A DNA stretch of 64,000 bases from Alphaproteobacteria bacterium (GCA_964291215.2 OZ219791.1:1120001-1184000), one strand, 5' to 3'. Counted from the first letter of the stretch, positions 20,060 through 63,467 are shown. Program-made: numbers and translations. The notes: a model not told the origin generated them from the sequence alone.

Positions 20060-21583
20060 GTATCTACTCACCCCTTGTTGGGTTCTGATTGGCCATAGTG
20101 CTCGTTGATGATGTCTGCGGCTTTTCCGTCGAGGGCGATCTGGGTGGCGACGAGTGGGTTGTAGCCGAGTGCGGCCATGGAGGTGAGGTAGCTTGAGCCC
20201 CGGCACCATGCTTTCGCGTGGAGCGGAAGCATCCGGACACCTTGAGCTTTGCCATCCTGATCTTCTGTTCTCCGGCATTGTTGGTGAAGCTGATGTCGGG
20301 GTCGTCTGTGAAGCGCAGGTTTTCGTGTTTCACGAGACGTTCGTGCAGGTTGTGCGCGTCGGACTTGCGTCCACGTTTTCCTTTCGGCGGGATGTCGGGC
20401 AGTTCCCTGGCACCCTGATGGTGCGGTAGCGCTTGCGCACGGCCCGGCGTCGTTCAGGGTTCTGGATGCGCTCTTGTTGACCTTGTGGCAGACCTCGCGG
20501 AGCAGGCCCTTCATCAGTCGCGCGGTAGCCTCGACGACAAAGGTCAGTTCGCGCAGCAGGTGGCTGCCGCACAGCTGGTGGCTACACTGGCCCATGTACG
20601 AGGCCCAGGACGCCCTTGTAGCACGGGCCGATCTCTTGCCCGCGCTTGCGGTGCGGGAACTTGCACGTCAGGGTCCCACGACATGGAGCCACTTACTGTT
20701 GATCCGAAATCGTCGACATCGGGCGTTGCAGGAGGTGCGCCACGGCGGCCTCCTCCCATGACGCATCGTGAAAGCATAGCCGAGGCAGGTTGCCTCGGAG
20801 AGCTTGATGCCGGAGATCGCCTGCACGAACGCGACGGTACGGCGCAGGGGCAGCATTTGGGCGACCAGCAGGTTGATGACGAGGACCTGAATGCCGATGC
20901 CGTACTGCACGGGATGTTGTCGGGGAACTGGCCCCGGGCCTTGCACTTCGGGCATTCCTTGATCTCGGCGCGGCGCTCGACGACCTCGAACACGATGTCG
21001 TGCGGCGCTCCCGATCGACGGGGCCGTCGATGTCAGCGCCGCAGGCGTCGCAGGCCGCGACCGTTTCCTCGACGATGGTCTTGCGCAGGTTGTCGCCCAT
21101 CTGCCGGTTCGGCTTCGGGCCCTTGCCGTTGCTTCCGGCACGCTCTCGTCCTTGTCCGTCTGTGACGGCGGCAGACCGGAGTTCCGGCTCGTGCGTAGTC
21201 TTCTCCAGAAGGACGACGATGAGGATGTCGAGCAGGATGACGAAGACGCGGATCACGGCCTCTTCCGCCACCTTGCCGGCAGCGCCGCGATCCTGGCCGC
21301 TTCGAACTCCTCGCGCGCCGCCCGTCGCTATCACCCGGCCTTGCGCTTCATCAGCGCGCCGCCTCCGAGATGCGTTTCCACATACAGATCATGCGGAGGC
21401 TGGAGCCCCGGAAGCAGCTGGCACAGCCCGCTCGTCGCCTTCGATCCAAAGTAGCCCACTGGCGGTCCCCGTCGTTCTCGATGACCACCACTAAGCGAAT
21501 CGGCATGCAGTGTCAAATCTCCACGAAAACCCGTTCGTTGCTCTACCCCGACATCAAGCCGGAACCAGGGGGTGAGCAGTTAC
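20060..21583 (-). mobile_element. IS66-family element, copy A, degenerate transposase
   Basis: TIRs GTAACTGCTCACCCC / GTATCTACTCACCCC; perfect 8-bp TSD ACCTAGTC; HQLCGSHLLREL and FTNNAGEQKIRMAK.KVSGCFRS motifs. Confidence 0.93.
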
Positions 21584-26097: not shown

Positions 26098-27460
<1,363 letters not shown>

Positions 27461-34050: not shown

Positions 34051-34072
34051 ACCTGCGGTTGCGGCCGGGCGG

Positions 34073-42681: not shown

Positions 42682-42776
42682 CCCGCGCCGAGGGAGATTC
42701 TAGTTTGCGGATGTCCGCGAACGGCGGATGAACCATTCAGGCCGCAGTCATTGCGGCCCCGCACGAAGGGGCGAAC

Positions 42777-43097
42777 ATGGCGAGCAAATCCGTTTCCGAC
42801 GACTCATTCGAAAACGAGGTACTTGGCGCAGACGGCGCAGTTCTGGTCGATTTCTGGGCCGAGTGGTGCGGTCCCTGCAAGCAGATCGGACCGTCCCTTG
42901 AGGAGATTTCGGAGGAGATGGCGGACAAGATCACCGTCGTGAAGGTAAATATCGACGACAATCCGATGACCCCCTCGAAATACGGCGTCAGGGGCATTCC
43001 GACCCTGATGCTGTTCAAGGACGGAGGCCTGGCGGCAACCAAGGTCGGCGCATTGCCCAAGGGCAAGATCGTCGAGTGGATCCAGTCTTCGATCTGA
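42777..43097 (+). CDS. trxA: Thioredoxin
   Basis: WAEWCGPCK; follows addA. Confidence 0.97.
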
Positions 43098-43281
43098 CCG
43101 CCCCGCATGGCGGGCCGGTCTCGGCACCGGCCGGTTTCCGAGTCCTGCCGGCAGACAACGCAACGGAAACGGAGCGGCCTTCCTGCTTCCGGCGGTGAGG
43201 GTTGCCACGATGCCCGGCGAATGGCCGGTTGGCGGGCGGGCACGCGCCACCGCTTCCCCTGAATCTGCTGCAGGAGCCGCC

Positions 43282-44451
43282 ATGGCCGAGATCGCATCCA
43301 TCGAAACCGTGCCGGTCGAGCTTCCGACGCGGCGCGAACACAAGTGGACGGGGCTGACCGAGCCAATCGGCCGCTACGTCCTGGTCCGCGTGGCCTCGGA
43401 CGAAGGCGTCGAGGGCTGGGGCGAAGCGCCCGCGCTCAAGGACTGGGGCGGTGAGTTCGGGCGTTATTTCGGCGAGTCGCCGGCAATCACGGATGTTGTC
43501 ATTGCCAACTATCTGGCGCCGGCTGTCGCCGGGATGGAGGTCGGCAACATTGCTGAGGCCCATACCCGCATGGATGCGGTCATCAAGGGCTACCCCTATG
43601 CCAAGGCGGCTGTCGAGCTTGCGCTGTTCGATGTCGCCGCACGCACGCTCGGGGTTCCGGTGCACATGCTCCTCGGAGGCCGCGTTCGGGACCGGATTCC
43701 GGTGACCCATTCGATAGGGCTCCTCGATTTTGCCGAGGCGGAGCGAGAGTGCGTCAGGGTGGTCACCGAAGGCATCCGCACCATCAAGATCAAGGTCGGC
43801 GTGGATCCGGAACGCGATGTCGAGATGGTGCGCCGCATCCGCGAGACGGTGGGACCAGAGATCAATCTGTGTGTCGACGCGAATGAAGGATACCGGACAC
43901 CCGGAGCTGCGGTGCAGATCATTCGCAGGATGGAGCCGTACGGTTTGATCTATGTCGAGCAGCCGGTCGAGGGAATCGAGCGCACGGCCGAGGTCGCGCG
44001 CGCCATCGACGCGCCGGTGATGCTCGACGAGTCCGCCTGGAACGCGCATGACGTGCTTCGTATCATCGAGACGCAGGCGGCGGATATCGTGTCGCTCTAC
44101 ACGACCAAGCCCGGCGGCCTGCTCAAGGCGATGGAAACCGCGGCCGTGTGCCGGGCAGCTGGCATCGTCTGCAACGTCAACGGCTCGGTCGAGACCGGGG
44201 TCGGTAATCTCGCCAACCTGCAGCTTGCGGCGGCGGCGGCGGCGGCGGAGTTGTCCTGCGTGGTGCCGGTCTCGACGCCGGCGGAGGCCCGCGGAGACCG
44301 GATCGCGGGAATCTACTACCGCGACGATTTCCTGGCCGAACCGATGCATCTCGTCGACGGTGCGATACGGCTTCCGGAGGGGCCGGGCATGGGCATCGAG
44401 GTCGATCCGGAGAAGGTCGCGGCCTATCGGCTGGATTCCTGCGATGGCTGA
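43282..44451 (+). CDS. Mandelate racemase/muconate lactonizing enzyme (enolase) superfamily protein
   Basis: GWGEA, KIK, DAN, EQP, DES, KPGG, GPGMG; SD AGGAG. Confidence 0.88.
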   Translation: MAEIASIETVPVELPTRREHKWTGLTEPIGRYVLVRVASDEGVEGWGEAPALKDWGGEFGRYFGESPAITDVVIANYLAPAVAGMEVGNIAEAHTRMDAVIKGYPYAKAAVELALFDVAARTLGVPVHMLLGGRVRDRIPVTHSIGLLDFAEAERECVRVVTEGIRTIKIKVGVDPERDVEMVRRIRETVGPEINLCVDANEGYRTPGAAVQIIRRMEPYGLIYVEQPVEGIERTAEVARAIDAPVMLDESAWNAHDVLRIIETQAADIVSLYTTKPGGLLKAMETAAVCRAAGIVCNVNGSVETGVGNLANLQLAAAAAAAELSCVVPVSTPAEARGDRIAGIYYRDDFLAEPMHLVDGAIRLPEGPGMGIEVDPEKVAAYRLDSCDG

Positions 44452-44463
44452 GGGAGAGCGGCG

Positions 44464-45597
44464 TTGCGCGCCGAGGTGATCGACCGCCTGGTCCGGGAAA
44501 TGCGCGCCCGGGGCCATGATGCCGAGATCATGTGCTCGCCGGAGAACTTCGCCTACGTTACCGGTTTCGTGGTTCCGTCGCAGCCGCTGCTGCGCCACCG
44601 CCATGCCATGGCGGTGGTCACTGCCGACGGTGAGGTGTCGCTGTGCGGGGTCGACATGGAGGCGACGACGATCAGCACCCACGCTCCCGACGCGTCGCTC
44701 AGGGTCTGGGCCGAGTTCGCCGACGACCCGATGGAGGTCCTGGGTTCGATGTTGTCCGATCTTGGGCTCGCCGGTTCGGAGGCAGGCATCGAGACGGGGT
44801 ATCTTCCGGCGGCGGACTTCGGACGGCTGAAGCGGCTGCTGCCCGGTGTCCGCTTCGTCGCCAACGATGACATCCTCGCGCGGCAGCGCCAGATAAAGAC
44901 AGCGGACGAGATCGCGCTGTTGCGGCGGCTGTCGCGGATTGCCGACGAGGCGATCGTCGGCGCGCTCGGATCGGTGCGGCGCGGCGACAGCGAGATGGAC
45001 GTTGCCGGCCATCTGACCGGTGGAATCTACGAACTTGGCGCGCACGATTTCAGGCTGATGATCGTTGCCACCGGGGAGCGCAGCCAGCTTCCCAATGTCG
45101 GTCCCAGCATGCGCCGCCTCGAGAGCGGAGACGTCTGCAGGGTCGAGATCTTCGCCATCATCGACGGCTATCATGCCGGGGTCTGCCGCACGGCGTGCGT
45201 CGACGCGCCGCCGCCCCATGCGGCGGACATCTGGCAGGTGCTGGTCGAATGCAAGCACCTTCTTCTCGACCGAATCCGCCCGGGGGCGAGCTGCCGCGAT
45301 ATCTATCGTGCGTTCGCCTCGCAGCTGGCCCGCTACAACCTGCCGCCGATCTCGTTCGCCGGGCACGGGATCGGGCTGTTCCTGCACGAAGATCCCTATA
45401 TTGGCGATACGCCGGTCATCGGTTCGAAGGAAGACGCGTTCCTCGAGGCGGGAATGGTTTTCGGGGTCGAGCCGCTCTGCTACTGCACCGGGCACGGATT
45501 CGGGATGCAGAACAAGGACATGGTTCTGGTCACGGAGAACGGATGCGAACTGCTTTCGGACCGGGCGGACACGGACAGTCTGATGCTGATTCGGTGA
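44464..45597 (+). CDS. M24/creatinase-fold protein with atypical metal ligands
   Basis: ENFAYVTGF, R.IKT.DEI, GHGIGL.LHE, VEP; TTG start after GAGGGAG. Confidence 0.82.
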   Translation: MRAEVIDRLVREMRARGHDAEIMCSPENFAYVTGFVVPSQPLLRHRHAMAVVTADGEVSLCGVDMEATTISTHAPDASLRVWAEFADDPMEVLGSMLSDLGLAGSEAGIETGYLPAADFGRLKRLLPGVRFVANDDILARQRQIKTADEIALLRRLSRIADEAIVGALGSVRRGDSEMDVAGHLTGGIYELGAHDFRLMIVATGERSQLPNVGPSMRRLESGDVCRVEIFAIIDGYHAGVCRTACVDAPPPHAADIWQVLVECKHLLLDRIRPGASCRDIYRAFASQLARYNLPPISFAGHGIGLFLHEDPYIGDTPVIGSKEDAFLEAGMVFGVEPLCYCTGHGFGMQNKDMVLVTENGCELLSDRADTDSLMLIR

Positions 45598-45788
45598 CGC
45601 CCGGGCTAGGCCCGGACTCGGCGCGGCCGCCGCAGGGCCTGCGGACGCCAGCACCAAGTCCCGTTCGGGCTGATGCTCCCGATCCGGGTGTCACCGTGTG
45701 CGGCGGGTTTCGAGGGGAAGCGTAACCGGCGCCAGGATCCTATCCTGTGGCGTCAAGCGTGAAGGCTGCGGGGCCGCTGCCCCCGGGT

Positions 45789-46445
45789 TCAGTGCGGCGT
45801 CTGGGTCAGCGCCATGACGATCGAACGTTCGATCTCGACAATGGCGCTTCCGACCTCGCGGCCGATCAGGTCCATTTGGCGCAACTGCGCGATCCGGGTT
45901 GCGGCCCGCTCGAGTTCCCTGGGGGCGAAGATGTCGCCGAGAATGTCGCAGGCATCCGCCAAGCAGATCATGGCCGCGTCCCTCGGATCCGGTATGTCGT
46001 CGGACAGGAGCACATCGGTCAGGCGCAGCTTTGCCTCCCGCTGGGCGCGGCCGTCAATGATCGGATACTTGCGTTCCCTGAACACCCAGAGGAATTTCTG
46101 ATCCTGCACTTCGAGAACGCCGTGTTCGACGAGGCTGGCGAGCGCCAAGTCGCGAAGGTCCGACGCGCCCTGTCGCGCCAGCAGTTCTATCCAGCCTGCG
46201 GTGTCCCTGGTTTCCTCGCTCTCGGTGATGCGGTCGAGGGTGCGGTCGAGAATCGCATTTCCCGTCGGGGTGCGGTTCAGGACGATCAGGCGTTCGGGAT
46301 CGGTATCGATCCGGTTCTTGAACGCGAGGTCCATCAAGGTTGAGCCGGCGACGATGAACGCCGTGGTGCTCTCGCGGAGTGGAAGGAACGAGCCGTCCTC
46401 GTCGTCGAGCATGAGGAGGAGGATTTCTTCGGTGATTGTCAGCAT
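45789..46445 (-). CDS. GPP34/GOLPH3-family protein
   Basis: LTITEEILLLMLDD, AG..LMDL...RID, LV..GVL..KFLWVF...YP. Confidence 0.8.
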   Translation of the reverse strand: MLTITEEILLLMLDDEDGSFLPLRESTTAFIVAGSTLMDLAFKNRIDTDPERLIVLNRTPTGNAILDRTLDRITESEETRDTAGWIELLARQGASDLRDLALASLVEHGVLEVQDQKFLWVFRERKYPIIDGRAQREAKLRLTDVLLSDDIPDPRDAAMICLADACDILGDIFAPRELERAATRIAQLRQMDLIGREVGSAIVEIERSIVMALTQTPH

Positions 46446-46460
46446 GACAGTTCCAGTCGG

Positions 46461-46796
46461 TCAGGAAGCCGCGGCCAGCGCGGAATCGCGCGTATCGTAG
46501 CAATCGAGGATCTGCATGAAGCCGCTGATCTCGAATACCGACTTGCACTCGGGCTGCAGCGAGCAGAGTGTCAGCTTGCCGTTGCGCTGCTGACAGCTCT
46601 TGGCGCCAACTATGACTGCGCGGAGGCCGGCGCTGCTGATATATTCCATCTTCTCGCAGTCGAGGACCAGCTGCACCTCCCCGCGTTCGATGATTTCCTT
46701 GACCTTGCTCTCGAGGTCCGGCGCGCTGAAGCCGTCAAGCCGCCCCGCAATTCCGACAACGGTAACGGATCCGGCGGTCTCTTCTTCAAGTCTCAT
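46461..46796 (-). CDS. STAS-domain anti-sigma factor antagonist
   Basis: GRLD..SA, LD....YISSAGLR, VFEISGF. Confidence 0.92.
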   Translation of the reverse strand: MRLEEETAGSVTVVGIAGRLDGFSAPDLESKVKEIIERGEVQLVLDCEKMEYISSAGLRAVIVGAKSCQQRNGKLTLCSLQPECKSVFEISGFMQILDCYDTRDSALAAAS

Positions 46797-47268
46797 TGTC
46801 CGATCACTTTCCGTGTTTTCGCTAGGTTCTCCTGAACAGCATGATTGCTCCTGCTGGTCAGCCTAGTTCAAGCGCATATCTGGCGCAAGCCGGAATCGCG
46901 AACAAAATCAGGGTCTCTCCCATCCGGTTCGGTCCGATGCGGCCGTGACGCTCCGGTTTGCGGTTTCTCCCCCGGGTGTGCGGGCGCCCCTTGCAGCGGT
47001 CCGTCGGTGCCGGTGCGGGTTTTTCACGATACGGGCAGAGCGCCAAGAGCCCCCCGATGTCTGGATCGGACTGATGGCGGTGCTCGCGGCGATCATGGCG
47101 GTGGAGGCGCAGTGATGGTGAACGGCACCGTCCCTGCGCCAGCAGTTCGACACCTTCCGGAAGCGGTTCCACGATCTCCGCAAGCAGGACGATTACGCAA
47201 CCTGATGTCTGGAAATTGTCGTGAAGCTGATCGAGCTGTTCCCATTTGATGTATGCCTTGGTTTCGGT

Positions 47269-48755
47269 GTAACTGCTCACCCCCTGGTTCCGGCTTGATG
47301 TCGGGGTAGAGCAACAAACGGGTTTTCGTGGAGATTTGACACTGCATGCCGATTCGCTTAGTGGTGGTCATCGAGAACGACGGGGACCGCCAGTGGGCTA
47401 CTTTGGATCGAAGGCGACGAGCGGGCTGTGCCAGCTGCTTCCGGGGCTCCAGCCCCCGCATGATCTGTATGTGAAAACGCATCTCGGAAGCGACGCGCTG
47501 ATGAAGCGCAAGGTCGGGTGATGGCGACGGGCGGCGCGCGAGGAGTTCGAAGCGGCCAAGGCGCTGCGTGCGGCCGGCAAGGTGCCGAAAGAGGCCGTGA
47601 TCCGCGTCCTCGTCATCCTGCTCGACATCCTCATCGTCGTCCTTCTGGAGAAGACCACGCACGAGCCGGAACTCCGGTCTGCCGCCGTCACAGACGGACA
47701 AGAGCGTGCCGGGAGCAACGGCCCGAAGCCGAACCGGCAGATGGGCGACAACCTGCGCAAGACCATCGTCGAGGAAACGGTCGCGGCCTGCGACGCCTGC
47801 GGCGCTGACGGCCCCGTCGATCGGGAGCGCCGCACGACATCGTGTTCGAGGTCGTCGAGCGCCGCGCCGAGATCAAGGAATGCCCGAAGTGCAAGGCCCG
47901 GTTCCCCGACAACATCCCGTGCAGTACGGCATCGGCATTCAGGCCCTCGTCATCAACCTGCTGGTCGCCCAGATGCTGTCCCTGCGCCGTGCCGTCGCGT
48001 TCGTGCAGGCGATCTCCGGCATCAAGCTCTCCGAGGCAACCTGCCTCAGCTATGCTTTCACGATGCGTCATGGGAGGAGGCCGCCGTGGCGCACCTCCTG
48101 CAACGCCCGATGTCGACGATTTCGGATCAACAGTAAGTGGCTTCATGTCGTGGGACCCTGACGTGCAAGTTCCCGCACCGCAAGCGCGGGCAAGAGATCG
48201 GCCCGTGCTACAAGGGCGTCCAGGGCCTCGTACATGGGCCAGTGTAGCCACCAGCTGTGCGGTAGCCACCTGCTGCGCGAACTGACCTTTGTCGTCGAGG
48301 CTACCGCGCGACTGATGAAGAGTCTGCTCCGCGAGGTCTGCCACAAGGTCAACAAGAGCGCATCCAAAACCCTGAACGACGCCGGGCGCAAGCGCTACCG
48401 CACCATCAGGGCGCCAGGGAACTGCCCGACATCCCGACGAAAGGAAAACGCATCGCAAACGCGCACAACCTGCACGAACGTCTCGTGAAACACGAAAACC
48501 TGCGCTTCACAGACGACCCCAACGTCAGCTTCACCAACAATGCCGGAGAACAGAAGATCAGGATGGCAAAGGTCAAGGTGTCCGGATGCTTCCGCTCCAC
48601 GCAAAAGCATGGTGCCGGGTCTCAAGCTACCTCACCTCCATGGCCGCACTCGGCTACAACTCACTCGTCGCCACCCAGATCGCCCTCGACGGAAAAGCCG
48701 CAGACATCATCAACGAGCACTATGAATCAGAACCCAACAAGGGGTGAGTAGATAC
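47269..48755 (+). mobile_element. IS66-family element, copy B
   Basis: Both TIRs present; 8-bp TSD GTTTCGGT. Confidence 0.93.
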
Positions 48756-49732
48756 GTTTCGGTTTCCCATTTTTCGTCGATGAGGACCGCGGTTGAGAGG
48801 CGCTCCAACGAGGCAAGGTTCGGAAAGACCCTGACTTTTAAGGTGCGCCGCTTGAGCTCTTGCTGGATCGGTCGCTCGATGCCGTTCGAGGTTCGCATGC
48901 GCTTGCGGTGAGCATCGGGCAAGGTGAAGACAGCGAGCCCCGCATTGTTTTCCAGCCAGGAAGCCTGGATGCTTGTCGCTGGCCACGAGGGCGCCCAGTT
49001 CAGCCTCGGCGGTTTGGAGTGAGGAGGCGTGGCTCCGAGCTGTTTTCCAATACGTTTCCTGATGTCATTGTTCGGTGCACGGCGTTTTGCGCCAAGTGGA
49101 ACTGGCAGCGCTGCCACGTCGCCGCGCCCAGCACCGTGCCGCTTTCAGCCCGGCATCCGAGACGATGAAGGTCGTACCATGTGCAGGGCCTGCAAGCTTT
49201 CCAGGAAGGCTCTCCAATGGACCTCGGCCTCGGAGAGCGCCACAGAGAGCCCCAGAACGTGCCTGCAGCCCCTATTCCGATGGCCGAGAGCACTGCAACA
49301 TCGCGCACAACGCCGTCATGGCGGGCTTTTTCGTAGCGCGCATCCAGGATCAGGTATTTCATCAGGGGCCGGTTGCGCGGTGAGTTCTTCGTCGAGCAAC
49401 CTGGTGGCCCCCTGAGAAGAGGACAGGCTCCCGAACTCGCGCATTACATCCTGCCGTGTGGAAACACCCTTGATGTACATCTCGGCTACGGCGCGAGAAG
49501 ATCGCTGGCCGCGTTCAAGCGACTGGGGACGGATCGTCCCCGTGACCGGCCGTCTTTGGCACTTGAACGGTAACAGGGGGGTGTCGATCCGCTTGTAGCC
49601 GTTGGCATAGCCCTGTCGCTCCGGCGTCCGGTGGCCCGCTTTCAAGTACTGCTCGCGCTCGATTTGCATCGCAAGCTCGAAGAGCTGGCCAAAGACCCGC
49701 CCCAGATCCGTTGCTCCGTTTGCGATCAAATG

Positions 49733-51207
49733 GTAACTGCTCACCCCCTGGTTCCGGCTTGATGTCGGGGTAGAGTAACGAACGGGTTTTCGTGGAGATT
49801 TGACACTGCATGCCGATTCGCTTAGTGGTGGTCATCGAGAACGACGGGGACCGCCAGTGGGCTACTTTGGATCGAAGGCGACGAGCGGGCTGTGCCAGCT
49901 GCTTCCGGGGCTCCAGCCTCCGCATGATCTGTATGTGGAAACGCATCTCGGAGGCGGCGCGCTGATGAAGCGCAAGGCCGGGTGATGGCGACGGTCAACG
50001 CGGCGCGCGAGGAGTTCGAAGCGGCCAAGACTGCGGCGCTGCCGGCAAGGTGCCGAAAGAGGCCGTGATCCGCGTCTTCGTCATCCTGCTCGACATCATC
50101 ATCGTCGTCCTTCTGGAGAAGACCACGCACGAGCCGGAACTCCGGTCTGCCGCCGTCACAGACGGACAAGAGCGTGCCGGGAGCAACGGCCCGAAGCCGA
50201 ACCGGCAGATGGGCGACAACCTGCGCAAGACCATCGTCGAGGAAACGGTCGCGGCCTGCGACGCCTGCGGCGCCGACGGCCCCGTCGATCGGGAGCGCCG
50301 CACGACATCGTGTTCGAGGTCGTCGAGCGCCGCGCCGAGGAATGTCCGAAGTGCAAGGCCCGGGGCCGGTTCCCCGACAACATCCCGTGCAGTACGGCAT
50401 CGGCATTCAGGTCCTCGTCATCAACCTGCTGGTCGCCCAGATGCTGTCCCTGCGCCGTCGCGCTCGTGCAGGCGATATCAAGCTCTCCGAGGCCTCGGCT
50501 ATGCTTTCACGATGCGTCATGGGAGGAGGCCGCCGTGGCGCACCTCCTGCAACGCCCGATGTCGATGATTTCGGATCAACAGCAAGTGGTTTCATGTCGT
50601 CGGGACGTGCAAGTTCCCGCACCGCAAGCGCGGGCAAGAGATCGGCCCGTGCTACAAGGGCGTCCTGGGCCTCGTACATGGGCCAGTGTAGCCACCAGCT
50701 GTGCGGCAGCCACCTGCTGCGCGAACTGACCTTTGTCGTCGAGGCTACCGCGCGACTGATGAAGAGCCTGCTCCCTGCCACAAGGTCAACAAGAGCGCAT
50801 CCAAGACCCTGAACGACGCCGGGCGCAAGCGCTACCGCACCATCAGGGCGCCAGGGAACTGCCCGACATCCCGCCGAAAGGAAAACGTGGACGCAAGTCC
50901 GACGCGCACAACCTGCACGAACGTCTCGTGAAACACGAGAAGTCCGTCCTGCGCTTCACAGACGACCCCAACGTCAGCTTCACCAACAATGCCGGAGAAC
51001 AGAAAATCAGGATGGCAAAGCTCAAGGTGTCCGGATGCTTCCGCTCCACGCAAAAGCATGGTGCCGGGGCTCGAGCTACCTCACCTCCATGGCCGCACTC
51101 GGCTACAACCCACTCGTCGCCACCCAGATCGCCCTCGACGGAAAAGCCGCAGACATCATCAACGAGCACTATGGCCAATCAGAACCCAACAAGGGGTGAG
51201 TAGATAC
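49733..51207 (+). mobile_element. IS66-family element, copy C
   Basis: Both TIRs present; 8-bp TSD ATCAAATG. Confidence 0.93.
49857..49985 (+). CDS. 42-aa leader ORF inside IS66 resembling a DNA adenine methylase N-terminus (also in the other copies)
   Basis: GYFGSKATSGLCQ...PPHDLYVETHLGGGALMKRK; preceded by TTGACA-N17-TAGTGG and GGGGA; TGATG overlap with the transposase start. Confidence 0.55.
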   Translation: MGYFGSKATSGLCQLLPGLQPPHDLYVETHLGGGALMKRKAG

Positions 51208-52123
51208 ATCAAATGTTCCAAAACAGTCCCGATCGTCGTAGTGTGTCGCAGGTCCATTCGCTTCCTCCATGAAGGTTTTGCAACTCCATGGGATAGTACG
51301 ATGGCGCCGCGTTTCACTGGGGGGGCTAGCCCCCCAGTAAAACGCCTCAAAGCGCAAACCTCAGACAAATTTCCAGACATCAAGTTATAGTACCAGCAGG
51401 GGACAAGGTCAGCCCGGAGTGCGAGACGGTCGTCAGTGGTCTGCTGATGAACTTGATGCTGACCGTGCTCATGGAGAAGGCCACGCGCAAGACCAGCGCC
51501 AGCCTCCCGCCGCCGCAGACGGACAAGGACGAGACCCTCCCCCCGGCGTGCCGGCGGCAGCGGCCCGAAGCCGAACCTGCAGACGGGCGACAACTTCCGG
51601 AAGACCGTCGTCGAGGAGACGGTCGCCGTCGAGGCCTGCGGCGCCGACCTCTCCGGCCTCGAGGCCGTCGCACGGGAGCGCCGCATCCTCTACGACATCG
51701 TCTTGGAGGTCTTCAAGCGCCGCGTCGACGCCGAGGTCAAGAAATGCCCGGATTGCCGGAGCCGGTCCCCCGAGACCATGCCCAGGCCGCGACAATACGG
51801 CAGCGGTCTGCAGGCCTTCGTCATCAACCTGCTGGTTGCCCAAATCCGGTCCCTGCGCCGGGCCGTCGCGCTGGTGCAGGCGATCTCCGGGCTCAGGCTC
51901 TCCGAGGCCACCTGCCCCCGCTACGTCAGCCGCCGTCACGGCCGCCGCTGCCCCGTTTTCGTTCAGGTCGCCGCACAAATTTCGGGCATGTTGCCTGAAT
52001 TCAGATCGTCCGCAGCGACGGTTACGCAACGCGCCGAACCCTCCATCCGGTCCTGTCCGCATTCGCTCGGTGAATGCGGACAGGCGGCTCGATGCGGAAT
52101 GCGTGGCACCCCGAGCCGCCGGA

Positions 52124-52468
52124 TCACTCCGCAGGCGCGGTTTCGGGGGCGTTGCGTCCGAGGATGTATGCTTCGACGAAGTCGAGCTTTCCCTTGATCT
52201 CCGCCTGGCCGGTCTCAAGCGCCCGCAGCCGGTTGTCGATTCCGTCGATACGCTTGTTGGTGTCGTCGATGCGTTTGACGAGCGCGGCGCCGGTGTCGTC
52301 GATGCGCCTGTTGGTGTCGTCGATACGCTTGTTGGTGTCGTCGATGCGCTTGCCGAGCCGGTCTTCGAGCCGCAGCATGCTGCGCCACATGAGACCGAGA
52401 ACGGTTAGCAGGACGACCGGTGTCAGCCAAGGAGAAATCTGGGCGGCGAACTGCGGTGTCTGGTCCAT
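52124..52468 (-). CDS. Small single-pass membrane coiled-coil protein with RIDDTNK heptads
   Basis: TM segment WLTPVVLLTVLGLMW followed by 21-nt repeats encoding (K/R)RIDDTN. Confidence 0.7.
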   Translation of the reverse strand: MDQTPQFAAQISPWLTPVVLLTVLGLMWRSMLRLEDRLGKRIDDTNKRIDDTNRRIDDTGAALVKRIDDTNKRIDGIDNRLRALETGQAEIKGKLDFVEAYILGRNAPETAPAE

Positions 52469-52752
52469 GCCGGCAATATGACACGGCGTGGCATCGAAAG
52501 CGAGAGTTTTTCGGTCCGGCTGGCGTCAGCCAGTGTTACAGCCGCGCCCGACGCGAACGGAAGCCCGCTACGTGCGGACGGTATCCCCGATTGGAGAGAG
52601 CATCGGCGGTTTGGTACTATCGGTCCTGGAATGCGGCCGTATATTGATCACGTGGTTGCCGTGAACCGACCCGGTGTCGAGAGTTGCGCACGGCCGGCGG
52701 TACGTTCTACGATTCCGCAACCTCCGGCAGTTTGCGAGAGCCCCGGCAGACA

Positions 52753-52973
52753 ATGGCGAGAGACATAGTCGTAAAGGTTCTGGGCAGGATCTTGCCACCA
52801 GATTTCCAGTTTCTGGATTTGCCGCGAAAACACCGAAACATTACCTTCGCCTTCGATCGTGATTTACGGGACCATGACTGGCTGCTCGTCCATGATGATC
52901 TGCTTCCGATAAGCGAGGAACGACTCGGCTGCGCCCGTGAGCGAACGATCCTGCTGACATACGAACCCAGTTC
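52753..52973 (+). pseudogene. Truncated ORF resembling a GT10-type glycosyltransferase N-terminus
   Basis: FAFDRDLRDHDWLLVHDD...E.L.C..E.TILLTYEPSS, cut by an IS66 end. Confidence 0.45.
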
Positions 52974-53232
52974 GTATCTGCTCACCCCTCCGTAGAGGCG
53001 GGTTTGGCGTTGTGCATTTTGATCATGTCGGTGGCGTTTCCGGCGAGTGCGATCTGGATGGCGACGAGTGGGTTGTAGCCGAGTGCGGTCATGGAGGTGA
53101 GATAGCTTGAGATTCGGCACCAGGCCTCGGCGTGGAGCGGAGTTCGGAAGCATCCGGACACCTTGATCTTGACCTTTGCCATCCGGATTTCCTGCTTGCC
53201 GGGGTTGTTGTCGCTCATGAAGCGCAGGACGT
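52974..53232 (-). mobile_element. IS66 right-end fragment (divergent variant)
   Basis: IR GTATCTGCTCACCCC; IRMAKVKIKVSGCFRT...CRISSYL. Confidence 0.85.
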
Positions 53233-53617
53233 GTTGTCGGTTGGATAAAACGGCGGGATTTCGGCGATTCGCCGCGCTTTTCAGGATCGTGTTTCTTTGC
53301 TGTTGTCAGGTCCTGTTGTCGCGGTTTCAGTGTTTGTCTGTTTGTCTCTGTGAACCCCGCCCGTTTTCTTCCCTGTTGTCGTTTCGGTCCGGTTCCGGTT
53401 TTTCTGCCGGCATGTGATCCGGGCTCCTGAGGGTTGTCGGGAGGATTCTGGTGTTCCGCGGGATCGTCTGCCTTCCCTCAGGACCATCGTCCTCGTAGGA
53501 CCACGACGAGGCCGGAGAACGTCAGGTCGAAACCCTGCGCACAAGGCTGAAGGTCCCCCCTTGCCCTTGAGTACCCCCTTGGGTGGCCCCTTGTGGGGTC
53601 AGGGTGGTCCGGTATCG

Positions 53618-54851
53618 GATACTGTAACTTGATGTCTGGAAATTGTCGTGAAGCTCTCAGTCATCGAGCTGTTCCCATTTGATCTTGGTTTCGGTTTCCC
53701 ATTTTTCGTCGATGAGGACCGCGGTTGAGAGGCGCTCCAACGAGGCGAGGTTTGGAAAGACCCTGACTTTGGAGGTGCGCCGCTTGAGCTCTTGCTGGAT
53801 CGGCCGCTCGATGCCGTTCGAGGTTCGCATACGTTTGCGGTGAGCATCGGGCAAGGTGAAGACAGCGAGCCCCGCATTCTTTTCCAGCCAGTCTGCGAAG
53901 CTTGGATGCTTGTCGCGATAGCTGGCCACGAGGGCGCCCAGTTCAGCCTCGGCGGTTTGGAGTGAGGACGCATGGCTCCGAGCTGTTTTCCAATACGTTT
54001 CCTGATGATGTTGTTCGGTGCGTGCTGCACGGCGTTCTGCGCCAAGTGGAACTGGCAGCGCTGCCATGTCGCCGCGCCCAGCACCGCGCGTCGTGCTGCT
54101 TTCAACCCGGCATGGTCATCCGAGACGATGAAGGTCGTACCATGCAGGGCTAGCAAGCTTTCCAGGAAGGCTCTCCAATGGACCTCAGCCTCGGAGAGCC
54201 CCAGAACGTGCCTGCAGCCCCTATTCCGATGGCCGAGAGCACTGCAACATCGCGCACAACGCCGTCATGGCGGGCTTTTTCGTAGCGCGCATCCAGGTAT
54301 TTCATCAGGGGCCGGTTGCGCGGCGAGTTCTTCATCGAGCAACCTGGTGGCCCGGCTGACCTGAGAAGAGGACAGGCTCCCGAACTCGCGCATTACATCC
54401 TGCCGCGTGGAAACACCCTTGATGTACATCTCGGCTACGGCGCGAGAAGATCGCTGGCCGCGTTCAAGCGACTGGGGGGGTCGTCCCCGTGACCGTTTGG
54501 CACCTGAACGGCAACAGTGGGGGTGTCGATCCGCTTGTAGCCGTTGGCATAGCCCTGTCGCTCCGGCGTCCGGTGGCCCGCTTTCAAGTGCTGCTCGCGC
54601 TCGATTTGCATCGCAAGCTCGAAGAGCTGGCCAAAGACCCGCCCCAGATCCGTTGCTCCGTTTGCGATCAGATGTTCCAAAACGGCCTCAATCGTCGTAG
54701 TGTGTCGCAAGTCCATTCGCTTCCTCCATGAAGGTTTACAGCTCCATGGGATAGCACGATGGCGCCGCGTTTCACTGGGGGCTAGCCCCCCCAGTGAAAC
54801 GCCTCAAAGCGCAAACCTCAGACAAATTTCCAGACATCAAGTTACAGTACC
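53618..54851 (-). mobile_element. IS256-family element, copy 2, degenerate
   Basis: IRs GATACTGTAACTTGATGTCTGGAAAT / ATTTCCAGACATCAAGTTACAGTACC; flanks do not match. Confidence 0.9.
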
Positions 54852-54943
54852 AAGGCCTTGAAATAAAGAGCGAGTCGCTCCGGATCGCTTTCCATAGTAT
54901 CAGCATTCTCCTCGCGTCAACCCAATTGCGAAGGAGAATGAAA

Positions 54944-56509
54944 ATGCGATCAATAAGCGAACCAGGGTGTTCATGGCACGTCATCAACGACCTGCATGCC
55001 GGGTTGTTGTCGGAGTTTCACATTTATCTGCAACAAGCAGGTAATTCTGAGAACTCCATCCGGTTTTATCTCGGTACAGCAAGGCATTTCCTAGCTTGGC
55101 TGAAGGCGGACGGGACCACGCTGGAAACCATTGATAATTCAGTTCTGTTAGCTTTCCGGGACCATGATTGCGACTGTTTCGTGTCGACGCAAGGGTTTCC
55201 ATGGCCGAAGCGGGAACCCGGGCTTGGCAAGACAAGCATGTTGCAGGCTATCCGCTTTGTGAATTTCCTGGAAAGCAGCGGCAGAACCTGGCATCCCGGC
55301 GAGATTCGAATTGGCATTCAATACCTTGAAGATTATAGCGAACAATGTTCGGAACTGGGGTATCGAGAAAGGACCCTTCGTGACTTGAAGTTTTACATCC
55401 GCCACTTTCTGGTGTGGCTCTACCGAACAAGAACTTCGATAAAGTCGATCAACTCGAACATTATAGAGTCGTTTCTCAGTCACGACTGCTTGTGCCACAA
55501 CTACGCTTTAACCCCCAACAAGCTCAGAAGGGCCAAGACCTGCGAATCGACTGTCAAGGACTTTGCAAATTACCTCGCCGAGCAGGGTGTCGCATCAGCG
55601 GCCGCTGCGAAATCACAGCAAGGAAGACCTCGAAAACTGGAGGGGTTTTGCGTCTGGCTTGAACAGCATCGCGGCATATCAACATCGACCATCGAGGTAC
55701 ATGATCACTATGCGTCGATTGTTGTCGGCAATCTTGGAACCGACACGAACCAGTACGATGCCGCTTTGGTCCGTCAAGTTCTGCTCCGCGAATTTGCCAG
55801 TAGCGGCTTGGGCCGTGCGAAGGCCATGACTTGTTCCACACGCATGTACCTGCGCTTTCTCGCGTCGACCGGTGCGTGTTCTCCTGGCCTCGTCAACTCA
55901 GTTCCATCCCCAGCGTTTTGGCGGCTCTCGACGCTGCCGCGTTACATACCCATGGAAGATGTCGAACAGATGATCGCATCCTGCGATGTGAACACGCCTG
56001 GAGGCGTGCGTGATCGCGCCATCCTGCTTCTACTTGCGAGGTTGGGTCTGCGTGCTGGAGATATCTGCGAACTTGGGCCCTCGGACATCGATTGGGTCAA
56101 CGCCGAAATCCATGTCTGCGGCAAGACGAGGCGGTCTGTGGCATTGCCGCTCCCACAAGACGTTGGCGATGCGGTGTTGCATTACATTCGCACAGCTCGT
56201 CCGACCGCCGCGACATCAAAGCTGTTTCTGTGCCTGAATGCGCCACATCGGCCTTTCGCCGATTCCAGCGCTGTGTCGATGATAGTCGCGGCCGCCCTCA
56301 AGCGCGCAGGTATAAATAGGCCACGCGGTCGAGGTGCCCATCTTCTGCGCCATTCTCTGGCCACAGACATGCTCCGCTCCGGTGCATCGATGGATACCAT
56401 AGGAGCGTTGCTTCGGCACAAGTCTCGGGAAACCACCGCGATCTACGCCAAAGTCGACGTTCCCATGCTCGAAAGTGTGGCTCAGCCGTGGGTCGGAGGC
56501 GACCGATGA
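54944..56509 (+). CDS. Tyrosine recombinase, RitA-type
   Basis: RDRAILLLLARLGLR, HLLRHS, H....TAIYAKVD; two H-x-C-x-C motifs in the N-terminus; start 54938 or 54944. Confidence 0.9.
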   Translation: MRSISEPGCSWHVINDLHAGLLSEFHIYLQQAGNSENSIRFYLGTARHFLAWLKADGTTLETIDNSVLLAFRDHDCDCFVSTQGFPWPKREPGLGKTSMLQAIRFVNFLESSGRTWHPGEIRIGIQYLEDYSEQCSELGYRERTLRDLKFYIRHFLVWLYRTRTSIKSINSNIIESFLSHDCLCHNYALTPNKLRRAKTCESTVKDFANYLAEQGVASAAAAKSQQGRPRKLEGFCVWLEQHRGISTSTIEVHDHYASIVVGNLGTDTNQYDAALVRQVLLREFASSGLGRAKAMTCSTRMYLRFLASTGACSPGLVNSVPSPAFWRLSTLPRYIPMEDVEQMIASCDVNTPGGVRDRAILLLLARLGLRAGDICELGPSDIDWVNAEIHVCGKTRRSVALPLPQDVGDAVLHYIRTARPTAATSKLFLCLNAPHRPFADSSAVSMIVAAALKRAGINRPRGRGAHLLRHSLATDMLRSGASMDTIGALLRHKSRETTAIYAKVDVPMLESVAQPWVGGDR

Positions 56510-57426
56510 CCATGACTTATCACGTCGAGCGCTACGTCGCTCTCAAACGCCATCTTGGCTTCAAGTTCGTCGGGCAGGGACGAATCCTGGGGACCTACGC
56601 CAAGCATGCGGACGATCACGGCGATGAGTTCATTCTTTGCAACCGGATGATCGAAGCGGCGACCGGAACCGCGAAACTTCCGACCATAAGGACGAGGCTC
56701 GCGTTTCTCCGGAATTTTGCCTTGTGGCTCCACTCAGAAGACGAACGCCACGAAGTCTTGCCCCGGAATGTGCTTGGCCAGCCGGAAACACGACGGCGAA
56801 CGCCATGCCTGATGACGCCGGAGGAAATCCGGAAAGTGATGAACGCGGCACTGGACTTGCCGCCTGCGGGTTCAATTACGCCGCACAGCATTTACTACAT
56901 GATCGGACTCGCCGCGGCCACGGGAATGCGAGCAAGCGAGGTCGTTTTGCTGACGATATCGGACCTCACCCCCGACGGTGTTGTTATCCAGGAGACAAAG
57001 TTCAAGAAATCAAGGCTCGTTCCCTTGCACCTTACCGTTCGCAGAGCTCTCGAACGGTATCTGGAGATCCGGAGGCAGAACGGAGCTGTCCACGACCGCC
57101 TGTTCGTTCTATCGAACGGCAATCCGGTTCAACCCGGGTACCTGTCCCAGAAGTTCACCGAACTGGCGATAAAGACAGGAATCAAAAAGGGGCCGGGCGA
57201 GGGACCCAGCTTTCACAGTTTGCGCCATACCTTCGCGGTCAGATCTCTGGAAACGGCCGATACGACCGATCACGCAGACATTAGTCGGCACATCGTGGCT
57301 TTGACTACCTATCTCGGCCACGCTCACATGTCGAGCACCTACTGGTACCTGGAGGCCACTCCGACTCTGCTCCAGTCAATCTCCGACGCTGTCGAGAACG
57401 CACATGTGAAAGGGGTATCGCGATGA
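56506..57426 (+). CDS. Tyrosine recombinase, RitB-type
   Basis: TGMRASE, TKFKKSRLVPLH, HSLRHTFA, YLGH...STYWYL. Confidence 0.92.
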   Translation: MTMTYHVERYVALKRHLGFKFVGQGRILGTYAKHADDHGDEFILCNRMIEAATGTAKLPTIRTRLAFLRNFALWLHSEDERHEVLPRNVLGQPETRRRTPCLMTPEEIRKVMNAALDLPPAGSITPHSIYYMIGLAAATGMRASEVVLLTISDLTPDGVVIQETKFKKSRLVPLHLTVRRALERYLEIRRQNGAVHDRLFVLSNGNPVQPGYLSQKFTELAIKTGIKKGPGEGPSFHSLRHTFAVRSLETADTTDHADISRHIVALTTYLGHAHMSSTYWYLEATPTLLQSISDAVENAHVKGVSR

Positions 57427-61984: not shown

Positions 61985-63467
61985 GTATCTACTCACCCCT
62001 AGTTGGGTTCTGATTGGTCGTAGTGCTCGTTGATGATGTCTGCGGCTTTTCCGTCGAGGGCGATCTGGGTGGCGACGAGTGGGTTGTAGCCGAGTGCGGC
62101 CATGGAGGTGAGGTAGCTTGAGCCCCGGCACCATGCTTTTGCGTGGAGCGGAAGCATCCGGACACCTTGACCTTTGCCATCCTGATCTTCTGTTCTCCGG
62201 CATTGTTGGTGAATCTGACGTCGGGGTCGTCTGTGAAGCGCAGGTTTTCGTGTTTCACGAGACGTTCGTGCAGGTTGTGCGCGTTTGCGATGCGTTTTCC
62301 TTTCGGCGGGATATCGGGCAGTTCCCTGGCGCCCTGATGGTGCGGTAGCGCTTGCGCCCGGCGTCGTTCAGGGTCTTGGATGCGCTCTTGTTGATCTTGT
62401 GGCAGACTTCGCGGAGCAGGCTCTTCATCAGTCGCGCGGTAGCCTCGACGACAAAGGTCAATTCGCGCAGCAGGTGGCTGCCGCACAGCTGGTGGCTACA
62501 CTGGCCCATGTACGAGGCCCAGGACGCCCTTGTAGCGCGGGATGATGCCGATCTCTTGCCCGCGCTTGCGGTGCGGGAACTTGCACGTCAGGGTCCCACG
62601 ACATGGAGCCATTTACTGTTGATCCGAAATCGTCGACATCGGGCGTTGCAGGAGGTGCGCCACGGCGGCCTCCTCCCATGACGCATCGTGAAAGCATAGC
62701 CGAGGCCTCGGAGAGCTTGATGCCGGAGATCGCCTGCACGAGCGCGACGGCGCAGGGACAGCATTTGGGCGACCAGCAGGTTGATGACGGGGGCCTGGAT
62801 GCCGTACTGCACGGGATGTTGTCGGGGAACCGGCCCCGGGCCTTGCACTTCGGGCATTCCTCGGCGCGTCGCTCGACGACCTCGAACACGATGTCATAGA
62901 GGACGCGGCGCTCCCGATCGACGGGGCCGTCGATGTCAGCGCCGCAGGCGTCGCAGGCCGCGACCGTTTCCTCGACGATGGTCTTGCGCAAGTTGTCGCC
63001 CATCTGCCGGTTCGGCTTCGGGCCGTTGCTTCCGGCACGCTCTTGTCCGTCTGTGACGGCGGCAGACCGGAGTTCCGGCTCGTGCGTGGTCTTCTCCAGA
63101 AGGACGACGATGAGGATGTCGAGCAGGATGACGAAGACGCGGATCACGGCCTCTTCCGCCACCTTGCCGGCAGCGCCGCGTTCTTGGCCGCTTCGAACTC
63201 CTCGCGCGCCGCCCGTCGCCATCACCCGGCCTTGCGCTTCATCAGCGCGCCGCCTCCGAGATGCGTTTTCACATACAGATCATGCGGAGCCCCGGAAGCA
63301 GCTGGCACAGCCCGCTCGTCGCCTTCGATCCAAAGTAGCCCACTGGCGGTCCCCGTCGTTCTCGATGACCGGCACTGAACGAATCGGGCTGCAATGTCAA
63401 ATCTCCACGAAAACCCGTTCGTTGCTCTACCCCGACATCAAGCCGGAACCAGGGGGTAAGCAGTTAC
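61985..63467 (-). mobile_element. IS66-family element, copy D
   Basis: Both TIRs present; flanks CCCCGATC / CAAGAATC do not form a TSD. Confidence 0.92.

Follow-up and report, generated by a model that had tools for sequence, protein, structure and literature searches.

Genome-wide loss of 5–7 nt segments and its probable spread through high-copy insertion sequences in an alphaproteobacterium

The genome of the uncultured alphaproteobacterium under study (G000, 99% complete) harbors a low-rate, lineage-specific generator of 5–7 nt deletions that acts genome-wide, and its high-copy insertion sequences (IS) show an approximately 40–60-fold excess of such deletions per substitution, which stems from sharing among the copies and not from extra new events. 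We put the probability at about 60% that a nuclease-like activity removes 5–7 nt segments throughout the genome and that short-patch, one-way spread between copies then riddles the high-copy IS families. The first-pass annotation of the window (the whole 64,000-nt stretch of DNA that was analysed) had offered genome-wide and repeat-directed deletion as an either/or; both halves hold, as two layers.

A comparison of SahH with named relatives places the organism only broadly, within the Alphaproteobacteria, the best value being 83–84%. The genus members compared are G000–G004, among them the 93%-identical sister genome G001 and the distant relative G002, and the comparisons with G001–G004 cover stretches of the relatives' genomes. 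Within the 73 kb of G003 examined there are no repeats, hence no score for the deletion pattern. The IS copies of four further genomes (G030, G042, G047 and G049) are mostly young. Final repeat counts took in 111 of 113 IS66 copies and 50 of 52 IS256 copies of G000, leaving out two wrongly collected elements, one copy with a nested insertion and one over-long IS256 copy; an IS66 outlier is still contained in the parsimony-step, 12–19 nt composite and C>T-context counts. Copy deletions refer to the pooled long form of each family, against which a deletion fixed in every copy does not show. Apparent 9–50 nt 'insertions' in the IS alignments were discarded, nearly all of them deriving from the two wrongly collected elements. 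The mobile elements of the window are as follows.

20060..21583, minus strand: IS66-family copy of 1524 bp, flanked by an 8-bp target duplication and with 31 deletions, all of them shared
26373..27454, minus strand: IS110-family remnant (IS110 Pfam match) with partner segment 18968-19940
47191..51394, minus strand: IS256-family copy 1, eroded, ends matched, in three pieces split by two IS66 insertions; Transposase_mut domain hits at 49316-49744 and 48710-49117
47269..48755, plus strand: IS66-family copy of 1487 bp that lies within IS256 copy 1, flanked by the 8-bp target duplication GTTTCGGT and with 33 deletions, all of them shared
49733..51207, plus strand: IS66-family copy of 1475 bp, flanked by the 8-bp target duplication ATCAAATG and with 33 deletions, all of them shared
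51464..51923, plus strand: divergent IS66 subfamily remnant, 71–74% identical to the window IS66 copies, with gaps mainly of 6–7 nt
52964..53210, minus strand: divergent IS66 copy, right-end remnant
53618..54851, minus strand: IS256-family copy 2; 15 deletions, one private
61985..63467, minus strand: IS66-family copy of 1483 bp that lacks a perfect target duplication, with 37 deletions, all of them shared

The measured lengths of the four IS66-family copies are those first reported, and the quoted IS256 pairs, together with GGCCCGGTT versus GGCCCGGGGCCGGTT, were located as stated, for example at 49074/54017, 49152/54109, 48975/53912, 49344/54293 and 47895/50357. For the pair CTCCGC and CTCCAGCCTCCGC the long form was found (at 49911), the short form was not. 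Target duplications, described as intact, are perfect (8 bp) in three of the four window copies but not in 61985..63467, and 79 of 113 IS66 copies genome-wide possess a perfect one. IS256 copies 1 and 2 differ by 17 gaps in the window alignment; the two IS110 segments do differ by short indels, with 34 gaps of which 13 are 5–7 nt long. The losses had been regarded as private to each copy, yet the window's four IS66 copies carry 31–37 deletions apiece, none of which is unique in the genome, and private events amount to 1.3% in IS66 and 2.2% in IS256. The sole private loss of IS256 copy 2, one of those originally quoted, comprises 12 nt between 6-nt repeats. An Rfam scan of the whole window gave zero matches.

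Instead of the 6–12 nt originally claimed, the losses measure 5–7 nt with a mode of 6; the size spectrum has a sharp mode at 5–7 nt and falls at 4 and 8 nt. This class accounts for 76 of 146 distinct IS66 deletions and for 2358 of 3476 when counted per copy. Many 12–19 nt gaps overlap 5–7 nt loci and look like composites of such losses. The gaps are deletions, since at most loci the long allele is closer to the intact homologous transposase (32 of 36 loci in IS66, 15 of 19 in IS256). Microhomology of at least 2 nt is found at 50% of 671 events in G000 as compared to 20% expected by chance, whereas 26% have none, so that the description 'mostly between 2–6 nt direct repeats' was overstated; among single-copy events, 29 of 67 have at least 3 nt. 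Microhomology is thus enriched yet not needed, and because of this 2.5-fold enrichment slippage is considered to contribute in G000. Deletions in G000 start at an RY motif that is weaker than the ATY of G002: 607 of 5013 possible IS66 deletions score at least as high as the median common one, while only 36 are common. The commonest change in the IS copies is C>T, for which a strong dinucleotide context is absent, be it of a methylation-like or a RIP-like kind.

The genome-wide layer is apparent from single-copy DNA. In a 534-kb alignment, clean 5–7 nt segments are missing 67 times in G000 and twice in G001, whereas 1–4 nt gaps are similar in number (122 and 94) and 1-nt gaps (90 versus 58) are far less skewed than the 5–7 nt class. 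Contrary to the view that core genes are clean, 367 kb of coding DNA contain 23 in-frame 6-nt losses in G000, next to six 3-nt losses, as opposed to zero 6-nt losses in the sister, and losses within genes are nearly all in frame. At four of four readable 6-nt single-copy sites G004 has the long form. The 5–7 nt pattern was not seen in single-copy DNA of G001, nor among the IS copies sampled in G004. Four losses of this kind lie in the window.

11398: single-copy site that has lost 6 nt, with the long form in both G001 and G004
36041: in-frame 6-nt loss relative to G001 in the single-copy ORF 35535-36263; G004 has the long form, and a second strain's contig also carries the loss
45772: single-copy site lacking 7 nt that G001 has, with a blunt junction
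46922: single-copy site lacking 5 nt that G001 has, with a blunt junction

New events arise at a similar rate per substitution everywhere, about 0.01–0.04, in single-copy as in repeated DNA. Single-copy non-coding DNA has 32 events in 43 kb, or about 0.012 per substitution with substitutions assumed to be split evenly between the branches; two-copy repeats have 63 events per 1604 substitutions (0.039), and IS66 singletons yield about 0.01 (4 on about 1740 sites versus 158 SNP singletons on 722 sites). A comparison of single-copy pseudogenes comprised seven hand-picked, undated genes (6.5 kb).

The high-copy families carry 21.2 (IS66) and 11.0 (IS256) 5–7 nt deletions per copy at 17 substitutions per kb, corresponding to 0.5–0.7 deletions per substitution. 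Of the 46 IS66 deletion loci, 30 are at a frequency of at least 10% and four are singletons, whereas 29 SNPs fall into the former class and 158 into the latter (odds ratio 41, p=1e-16). Placed on the SNP tree, deletions require 92–94% of the parsimony steps of shuffled data, within IS66 and IS256 tree signal is absent between SNPs separated by more than 25 bp, and four-gamete violations among the copies attest to exchange between paralogous copies. In a cross-validated comparison of deletion and SNP turnover both were saturated in IS66 and IS256; a turnover specific to deletions is not demonstrable since SNPs are as thoroughly shuffled. The deletion load per copy is over-dispersed in IS66 (variance 12.9 versus 3.8, with a maximum of 6.1 in 2000 permutations) and in IS256 (11.4 versus 2.9), whereas the C>T load is not.

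Deletions tend to be missing where a SNP lies close to the junction. Copies with a minor SNP 1–5 bp from a junction carry fewer deletions (0.32 versus 0.60, with 83% of 35 pairs negative), and the effect fades by 11–20 bp, giving a footprint of about 10 bp. Majority deletions are repelled within 10 bp as well (0.46 versus 0.79), while SNP-SNP pairs show no comparable sign. Deletions 0–4 bp apart never occur together (four of four pairs), and those 5–14 bp apart are mostly nested. The element ends are spared: the first 300 and last approximately 90 nt of IS66 have 0–1.4 deletions per kb as opposed to 10–48.

The same 5–7 nt pattern is present in G002, next to identical intact copies. Here 48% of 95 deletions start at ATY (versus 4.6%), without strand bias of the motif (13 plus, 9 minus), 50 of 100 junctions are blunt and microhomology is at chance level. 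Old copies differ from their intact parents by 147 deletions and one insertion. In copy L175 of subfamily C, a tract derived from subfamily A/B brings along three A/B-type deletions. ATY sites deleted in at least three of four copies number 14, while the motif alone predicts 1.9 (maximum 7 in 5000 simulations).

In the preferred reading a putative nuclease would cut out 5–7 nt and rejoin the ends at a low rate over the whole genome; the cut-and-rejoin step is proposed because of the fixed size, the blunt junctions, the ATY start in G002 and the weaker RY in G000. Subsequently, deleted and undeleted copies would pair, the extra 5–7 nt looping out of the heteroduplex, and a loop too large for efficient MutS/MutL repair would be clipped instead of filled, so that short-patch recombination copies the deletion from repeat to repeat with a one-way bias. 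We infer this direction from the frequency spectrum, the one-sided SNP repulsion and the over-dispersed load; some of this signal could also be produced by old deletions under unbiased conversion, together with copies that were seeded on different occasions. The available portions of PMC2504288 describe MutS/MutL of E. coli as effective on loops up to about 4 nt and poor above, which agrees with the lower edge at 5 nt and with the proposed clipping. They further describe a large-loop repair independent of mismatch repair, its activity not identified, that acts even on loops of hundreds of nt, and in these portions neither fixed-size deletions nor repeat erosion are mentioned.

As for the responsible agent, MutS, MutL, RecA and PolA are intact. 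A mutator deficient in mismatch repair was rejected, given the open MutS and MutL frames and the modest skew in 1-nt gaps, and end joining by Ku/LigD likewise, neither Ku (PF02735) nor ATP-dependent ligase (PF01068) being found in G000–G004. NucS (PF01939) is absent from G000, with weak hits in G002 only; type IB topoisomerase (PF01028), Piwi (PF02171) and RecT (PF03837) were not found in the affected genomes G000 and G002. Rpn/YhgA nucleases do not track the trait, since all five genus members have them. Of 120 candidates among the low-GC3 genes of 20 G000 windows, about 1/14 of the genome, 90 were scanned against NCBIfam and 37 against Pfam; what turned up were ordinary defence genes (Mrr, DSR2, CBASS lipase, Schlafen, AbiEii), none of them convincing as the agent.

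A weak candidate for the generator, judged from gene content, is the SspABCD phosphorothioation subtype shared by G000 and G002 (53–76% amino-acid identity), which has no adjoining SspE or SspFGH in either genome. G001 has a different Ssp subtype with SspFGH, G004 has Dnd, and SspB was not found in G003. Two further genomes, G048 and G050, possess an 82–83% identical SspB and show no 5–7 nt peak in the stretches sampled, where IS copies are mostly young; in a phylum sample 6 of 400 are carriers, fragmented or distant. Oxidative breakage of phosphorothioates is the subject of a 2017 paper by Kellner and colleagues. According to the passages available from two reports (PMC8092258, PMC12914056), SspB is a nickase required for the modification and the Ssp motif is C(ps)CA, which is unlike the ATY or RY deletion starts. 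A literature search found no link between SspABCD phosphorothioation and deletions, and an A(ps)TC phosphorothioate motif, for which no literature support was found, was dropped. A broader possibility, one that we hold to be doubtful, is a horizontally acquired genome-defence system: its nuclease would seed 5–7 nt deletions, perhaps where the orphan SspABCD common to G000 and G002 has nicked the DNA, and its loop-clipping conversion would drive them through every multi-copy family.

Recurrent cutting without a template is unlikely. A sequence-preferring nuclease would then re-cut the same sites in each copy, directed to mobile or repeated DNA by a guide nucleic acid, a modification state or transposition intermediates, and conversion would be a bystander. 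The strong ATY start in G002 fits such hotspots, a nearby SNP could block recognition, and at G002 site 903 the same deletion sits on divergent flanks that are C-type all the way to the junction, a sign that it arose more than once, independently, at a motif. On the other hand, the G000 motif is too weak to single out the 36 common deletions, sharing in G002 exceeds the motif-only model 7-fold, new events are no commoner in high-copy IS than in single-copy DNA, and no Piwi gene was found. Moreover, SNPs that abolish RTC or ATC do not reach higher frequencies than neutral ones (0.236 versus 0.241); with the same figures for RTC-destroying SNPs at high frequency, hotspot erosion, a drive in which the cut allele loses, was rejected.

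Similarly, we would not readily expect a neutral history to suffice, in which deletions arose early in each family or were passed on by non-autonomous transposition, selection purged them from single-copy DNA, and unbiased conversion then shuffled them with no drive. SNPs are indeed shuffled as much as deletions, selection for mobility predicts the spared element ends, and a deletion of 74 nt is likewise widespread, being present in 81 of 111 copies. Unaccounted for, however, are the high frequency of 5–7 nt deletions but not of SNPs, the one-sided repulsion within 10 bp even for majority deletions, and the over-dispersion limited to deletions, and a 5–7 nt generator would still be required.

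Slippage or microhomology-mediated end joining as the main cause had been favored initially and now, with the lower size edge taken to be set by mismatch repair, appears quite improbable. It draws on the microhomology of both repeat and single-copy events in G000 and on mismatch repair being intact (mutS and mutL are both present with open frames). For G002 it is largely refuted by the chance-level, half-blunt junctions. The size distribution, instead of being broad and declining, breaks off sharply above 7 nt, sizes are locked and a quarter to a half of the junctions blunt, and the check for ku and ligD proved negative in G000–G004. MutS and MutL are present in the sister genome too, which nevertheless lacks the peak, and therefore a size limit of mismatch repair cannot explain the generator. 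The published pseudogene spectra, in the parts available (PMC6054270), follow a power law with an excess of multiples of three, whereas 5 and 7 nt are abundant here.

An assembly or polishing artefact in repeats, which would find room in that public contigs cannot place each IS copy at its own locus and that the three runs with most of the stretch come from one study (one maybe the source sample; runs X2–X10 hold small shares, and X2 and X3, fitting in patches only, were unused), can be discounted as far as public contigs, as distinct from raw reads, allow, since, among independently assembled public contigs, one of 13.7 kb shows 0 differences from the window, and another of 12.7 kb, from a second strain, spans three single-copy deletions with 86 substitutions but 0 gaps. 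Public contigs also contain both alleles of IS deletions, the pattern is repeated in an independent genome, G002, next to identical intact copies, and gene losses are almost all in frame.

Among known systems, nonallelic gene conversion in Drosophila and primates is described, in the sections available of Assis and Kondrashov 2012 (PMC3280953), as deletion-biased at about 3.4:1, so that neutral paralogs shrink together. There as here, paralogous copies exchange sequence, and here too deletions would be favored; the present case differs in being bacterial, in the 5–7 nt lock, the tract of about 10–15 bp, the lineage-specific generator and the ratio of 147 losses to 1 gain in old G002 copies. 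For bacterial pseudogenes, the corresponding parts of Danneels et al. 2018 (PMC6054270) give power-law sizes that peak at 3, 6, 9 and 12, the ratio of insertions to deletions being about 0.76; as in that bias, unselected DNA shrinks and 6-nt deletions are enriched, but here the 5–7 nt mode includes sizes that are not multiples of three, insertions are nearly absent and dispersed copies share identical events.

In repeat-induced point mutation (RIP) of filamentous fungi, multi-copy mobile DNA is mutated to death by C-to-T changes and single-copy DNA much less. The outcome in G000 is alike, with multi-copy mobile DNA wrecked and single-copy DNA far less affected. Contrary to RIP, the changes are deletions, two-copy repeats are not hypermutated (0.039 per substitution), and damage rises with copy number through shared events, not new ones. 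A deletional bias in bacterial pseudogenes was reportedly noted by Kuo and Ochman in 2009. For bacteria, a power law is the accepted form of the deletion spectrum. Here a lineage has switched on a fixed 5–7 nt signature that its sister lacks.

This lineage-specific signature points to an undescribed DNA-processing activity. The responsible gene should be findable by whole-genome comparison, since G000 and G002 are positive and G001 and G004 negative, and the finding may also expose a bacterial loop-repair activity. Core proteins are trimmed by two residues per event by the same process. If the defence reading were true, abundant IS would be destroyed in proportion to copy number, a bacterial, deletion-based counterpart of fungal repeat silencing. 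The preferred process of genome-wide loss and one-way spread, if true, would be an undescribed route to wrecking mobile DNA, in which copy-number-dependent spread acts as a self-limiting brake on IS blooms with no need for recognition of foreign DNA, and it would bear on the old question of how IS expansions in host-associated bacteria come to a close and genome reduction sets in.

The genome under study (G000; 6.15 Mb in two contigs, 64% GC, 99% complete) has 26–28% of each contig made up of sequence occurring five or more times. IS66-family sequence covers about 190 places and IS256-family sequence about 100, with 113 and 52 full-length copies, respectively; two copies of each family, mis-collected or with nested insertions, were dropped before the final counts. 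The longest open frames, measured stop to stop on either strand, reach 430 (IS66) and 343 (IS256) codons, and intact IS66 homologs in relatives have 488–500. AddAB, encoded in the window, and SahH matches of 83–84% assign the genome to the Alphaproteobacteria. Its features discussed here are:

27757–31968: a tandem of three Rpn/YhgA-like genes (PF04754) with about 96% identity
47191–51394: IS256 copy 1, split by two IS66 copies, with divergent IS66 remnants in the same nest
53618–54851: IS256 copy 2, part of the same IS nest
54794–58415: three consecutive tyrosine recombinase genes

The IS sequence pairs cited in the first-pass annotation and its four IS66 lengths were recovered from the window. 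Scored against the pooled long form of each family (111 IS66 and 50 IS256 copies), deletions average 31 per IS66 copy, 21 of them of 5–7 nt, and 13 per IS256 copy, 11 of them of 5–7 nt. Rather than the 6–12 nt first proposed, per-copy IS66 sizes centre on 5–7 nt with 6 nt commonest (4 nt, 1; 5 nt, 355; 6 nt, 1204; 7 nt, 799; 8 nt, 102), and losses taken to be private to each copy proved largely shared, the private share being just 1.3% (IS66) and 2.2% (IS256) with all copies aligned. That they lie mostly between direct repeats holds in part: among 671 distinct events in G000 repeats, microhomology of at least 2 nt is enriched (50% vs 20% by chance), but 26% of junctions are blunt. Of the 70 repeat families listed, most have gaps of 5–7 nt, at 2–23 per kb in pairwise alignments. 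Intact homologous transposases are better matched by the long allele at 32 of 36 IS66 and 15 of 19 IS256 loci, and comparison with intact elements of relatives leaves 53 segments of 5–7 nt missing in G000 and 2 in the relatives; both comparisons indicate that the gaps in G000 IS copies are losses.

Segregating 5–7 nt deletions are nearly absent from element ends at normal substitution density (0–1.4 vs 10–48 deletions per kb): about 300 nt at the start and about 90 nt at the end of IS66, and positions 100–300 of IS256, whose 3′ end is not spared. This sparing may come from selection for mobility or from an edge effect of pairing. Slippage-type changes of 1–2 nt fall mainly in the IS256 5′ region, where a facing G-run and C-run around TAG (e.g. 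window 51320–51335 and 54776–54792) vary in length among copies. Between IS remnants, a 114-aa open frame on the reverse strand (window 52124–52468) has internal repeats, similar sequence a few times elsewhere in the genome and weak coiled-coil matches (DUF7310, HSBP1) below cut-off.

Artefacts were checked for on assembled contigs of public sequencing runs, X11–X13 being from one study and single IS copies not being resolvable by them. A 13,706-nt contig of X11, which may be the source sample, has zero differences from window 33477–47182. A 12,673-nt X13 contig over window 34530–47178 shows 86 substitutions and no gap, so that the losses in single-copy DNA at 36041, 45772 and 46922 are carried by a second strain as well. 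At IS deletion loci both the long and the short allele are found in contigs of public runs. The deletion phenomenon is real and striking.

A relative about 95% identical to G000 is present in a sponge metagenome run (X1), and the sister genome G001 is 92–94% identical. Across 534 kb of single-copy alignment with G001, clean missing segments of 5–7 nt number 67 in G000 and 2 in G001, those of 1–4 nt 122 and 94; G004, a further genus member, carries the long form at all four readable 6-nt sites. With approximate gene calls, coding DNA has lost 23 six-nt and 6 three-nt segments in G000 (0 and 3 in G001), and 32 G000 losses lie in 43 kb of non-coding DNA. Broken single-copy genes, seven hand-picked from 25 flagged, contain 6 events in 6.5 kb. 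Per substitution, non-coding DNA shows about 0.012 new events, two-copy repeats with 1–4% divergence 0.039, and IS66, counted as singletons, about 0.01; the rate of new deletions appears equal across single-copy, two-copy and high-copy IS DNA. Single-copy events in G000 have a purine-pyrimidine start in 87% vs 62% (n = 38).

Among the genomes of the genus compared, the process is patchily distributed. In a further member, G002 (68–76% identical), the deletion mode is 5–6 nt and 434 of 586 unique gaps measure 5–7 nt; seven old IS66 copies set against intact parents show 147 deletions (136 of 5–7 nt) and 1 insertion, and heavily eroded copies coexist there with eight intact IS66 copies of equal score, identical in the four compared. 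Pairs of G004 IS copies totalling 45 kb yield 1 unique gap of 7 nt. Half of 100 G002 junctions are blunt, equal to the chance level, and a start at ATY is possible for 48% of 95 events vs 4.6% of matched controls, the purine-pyrimidine start of G000 deletions being weaker. The constant size, together with blunt junctions and a start motif, points to a probable cut-and-rejoin chemistry.

High-copy IS carry 9–12 deletions of 5–7 nt per kb, or 0.5–0.7 per substitution, some 40–60 times the single-copy ratio, and this excess is due to sharing among copies. Thirty of 46 IS66 deletion loci are at a frequency of at least 10% and 4 are singletons (SNPs, 29 and 158; odds ratio 41); in IS256 these are 18 of 19 and none. 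On the SNP tree deletions need 92–94% of the steps of shuffled data, and in both families tree signal is absent even for SNPs more than 25 bp apart, so that sharing is not by descent and short-patch exchange is intense. For 100 loci pooled from repeat families of at least 14 copies, deletion frequency is 0.32 vs 0.60 with a minor SNP within 1–5 bp (83% of 35 pairs negative) and 0.43 vs 0.63 with one at 6–10 bp; the effect is small past 20 bp, SNP-SNP pairs lack comparable repulsion, and the footprint is about 10 bp. Deletion pairs 0–4 bp apart are mutually exclusive, those 5–14 bp apart mostly nested.

One G002 copy of subfamily C contains a tract of A/B type, and the three deletions in it are of A/B type as well; at one other G002 site an identical deletion sits on C flanks, so independent recurrence occurs too. 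Since the start motif is insufficient to explain sharing between copies (G000 IS66, G002) and motif-destroying SNPs have no frequency advantage (the hotspot-erosion test failed), the bias concerns the difference in length specifically. Individual copies carry deletions at 3–22 of 28 loci, with a variance 3.4 times that permuted, and C>T load shows no over-dispersion; over-dispersion of deletions only would be expected from a one-way ratchet on copies of different age. From the frequency, SNP-repulsion and load patterns we infer that spread runs one way.

The best model, to which we assign a probability of about 0.6, is a low-rate, genome-wide generator of 5–7 nt deletions combined with one-way spread between repeat copies. 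A copy with the deletion and one without it would pair in a heteroduplex, from which the extra 5–7 nt would loop out, evade efficient MutS/MutL repair and then be clipped; such repair is efficient only to about 4 nt (PMC2504288). The process is not MMEJ, NHEJ or a mismatch-repair mutator. G000 has open frames for MutS, MutL, RecA and the PolA 5′ nuclease domain, and profile searches found no Ku, ATP-dependent ligase, TopIB, NucS, Piwi or RecT.

Phosphorothioation by SspABCD became a candidate generator because of the deletion start motif. G000 and G002 have SspABCD of one subtype in common, with no adjacent SspE or SspFGH, and SspB is a nickase required for the modification (PMC8092258). The G000 locus is:

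C1:874506–882861 (L218:12506–20000 and L219:1–861): orphan sspABCD cluster and low-GC DndB-like gene

Its cluster DNA is 84% identical to that of G048 and G050, carriers in another family, which makes recent horizontal transfer likely. G001 encodes a different Ssp subtype, with SspFGH, and G004 Dnd; no SspB match was obtained in the genus member G003. The G002 sspC (L220, about 19555) shifts frame at a long poly-C run, through either phase variation or sequencing error. Against the candidate, the motif described for the modification is C(ps)CA, unlike the deletion start motif, orphan sspBCD is the rule (84% in PMC8092258), and the sampled stretches of G048 and G050, with 82–83% identical SspB, have no 5–7 nt peak. 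An Ssp origin of the deletions is improbable.

The Rpn/YhgA-like tandem has a 15-bp IS66 end motif between its repeats. Its frames are open, with gaps of only 12 and 24 nt, in frame, despite 12 family matches genome-wide, which suggests purifying selection. The tyrosine recombinase trio, an arrangement we take to be RIT-like, has a second copy at C1:452443–456096, with 99.97% identity across 3654 bp. Strain X13 shows 8 substitutions and 6 gap letters, the latter possibly reflecting a recent 6-nt event. Defence islands of G000 (L347:6193–12859, L348, L346:2210–5836, L356) encode MazG-C, a type ISP fragment, Schlafen, Mrr, DSR2 sirtuin, CBASS phospholipases and several IrrE-like peptidases. In G001, L130:7221–10554 holds squalene-hopene cyclase, squalene epoxidase and P450-GPP34 genes; by tblastn the cyclase and epoxidase have no match in G000, the P450 gene a 38% partial one.

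Fungal RIP, which hypermutates any duplicated sequence, resembles the process in outcome, but G000 does not hypermutate every duplicate. No report of a 5–7 nt deletion signature, or of a deletion drive among bacterial IS, was found in the literature searched, which took in few subscription journals and excluded supplements. Bacterial pseudogene deletions, reported with power-law sizes and a 3n excess (PMC6054270), differ from the 5–7 nt spectrum here. In its mode of working the process resembles the deletion-biased nonallelic gene conversion of animals (PMC3280953).
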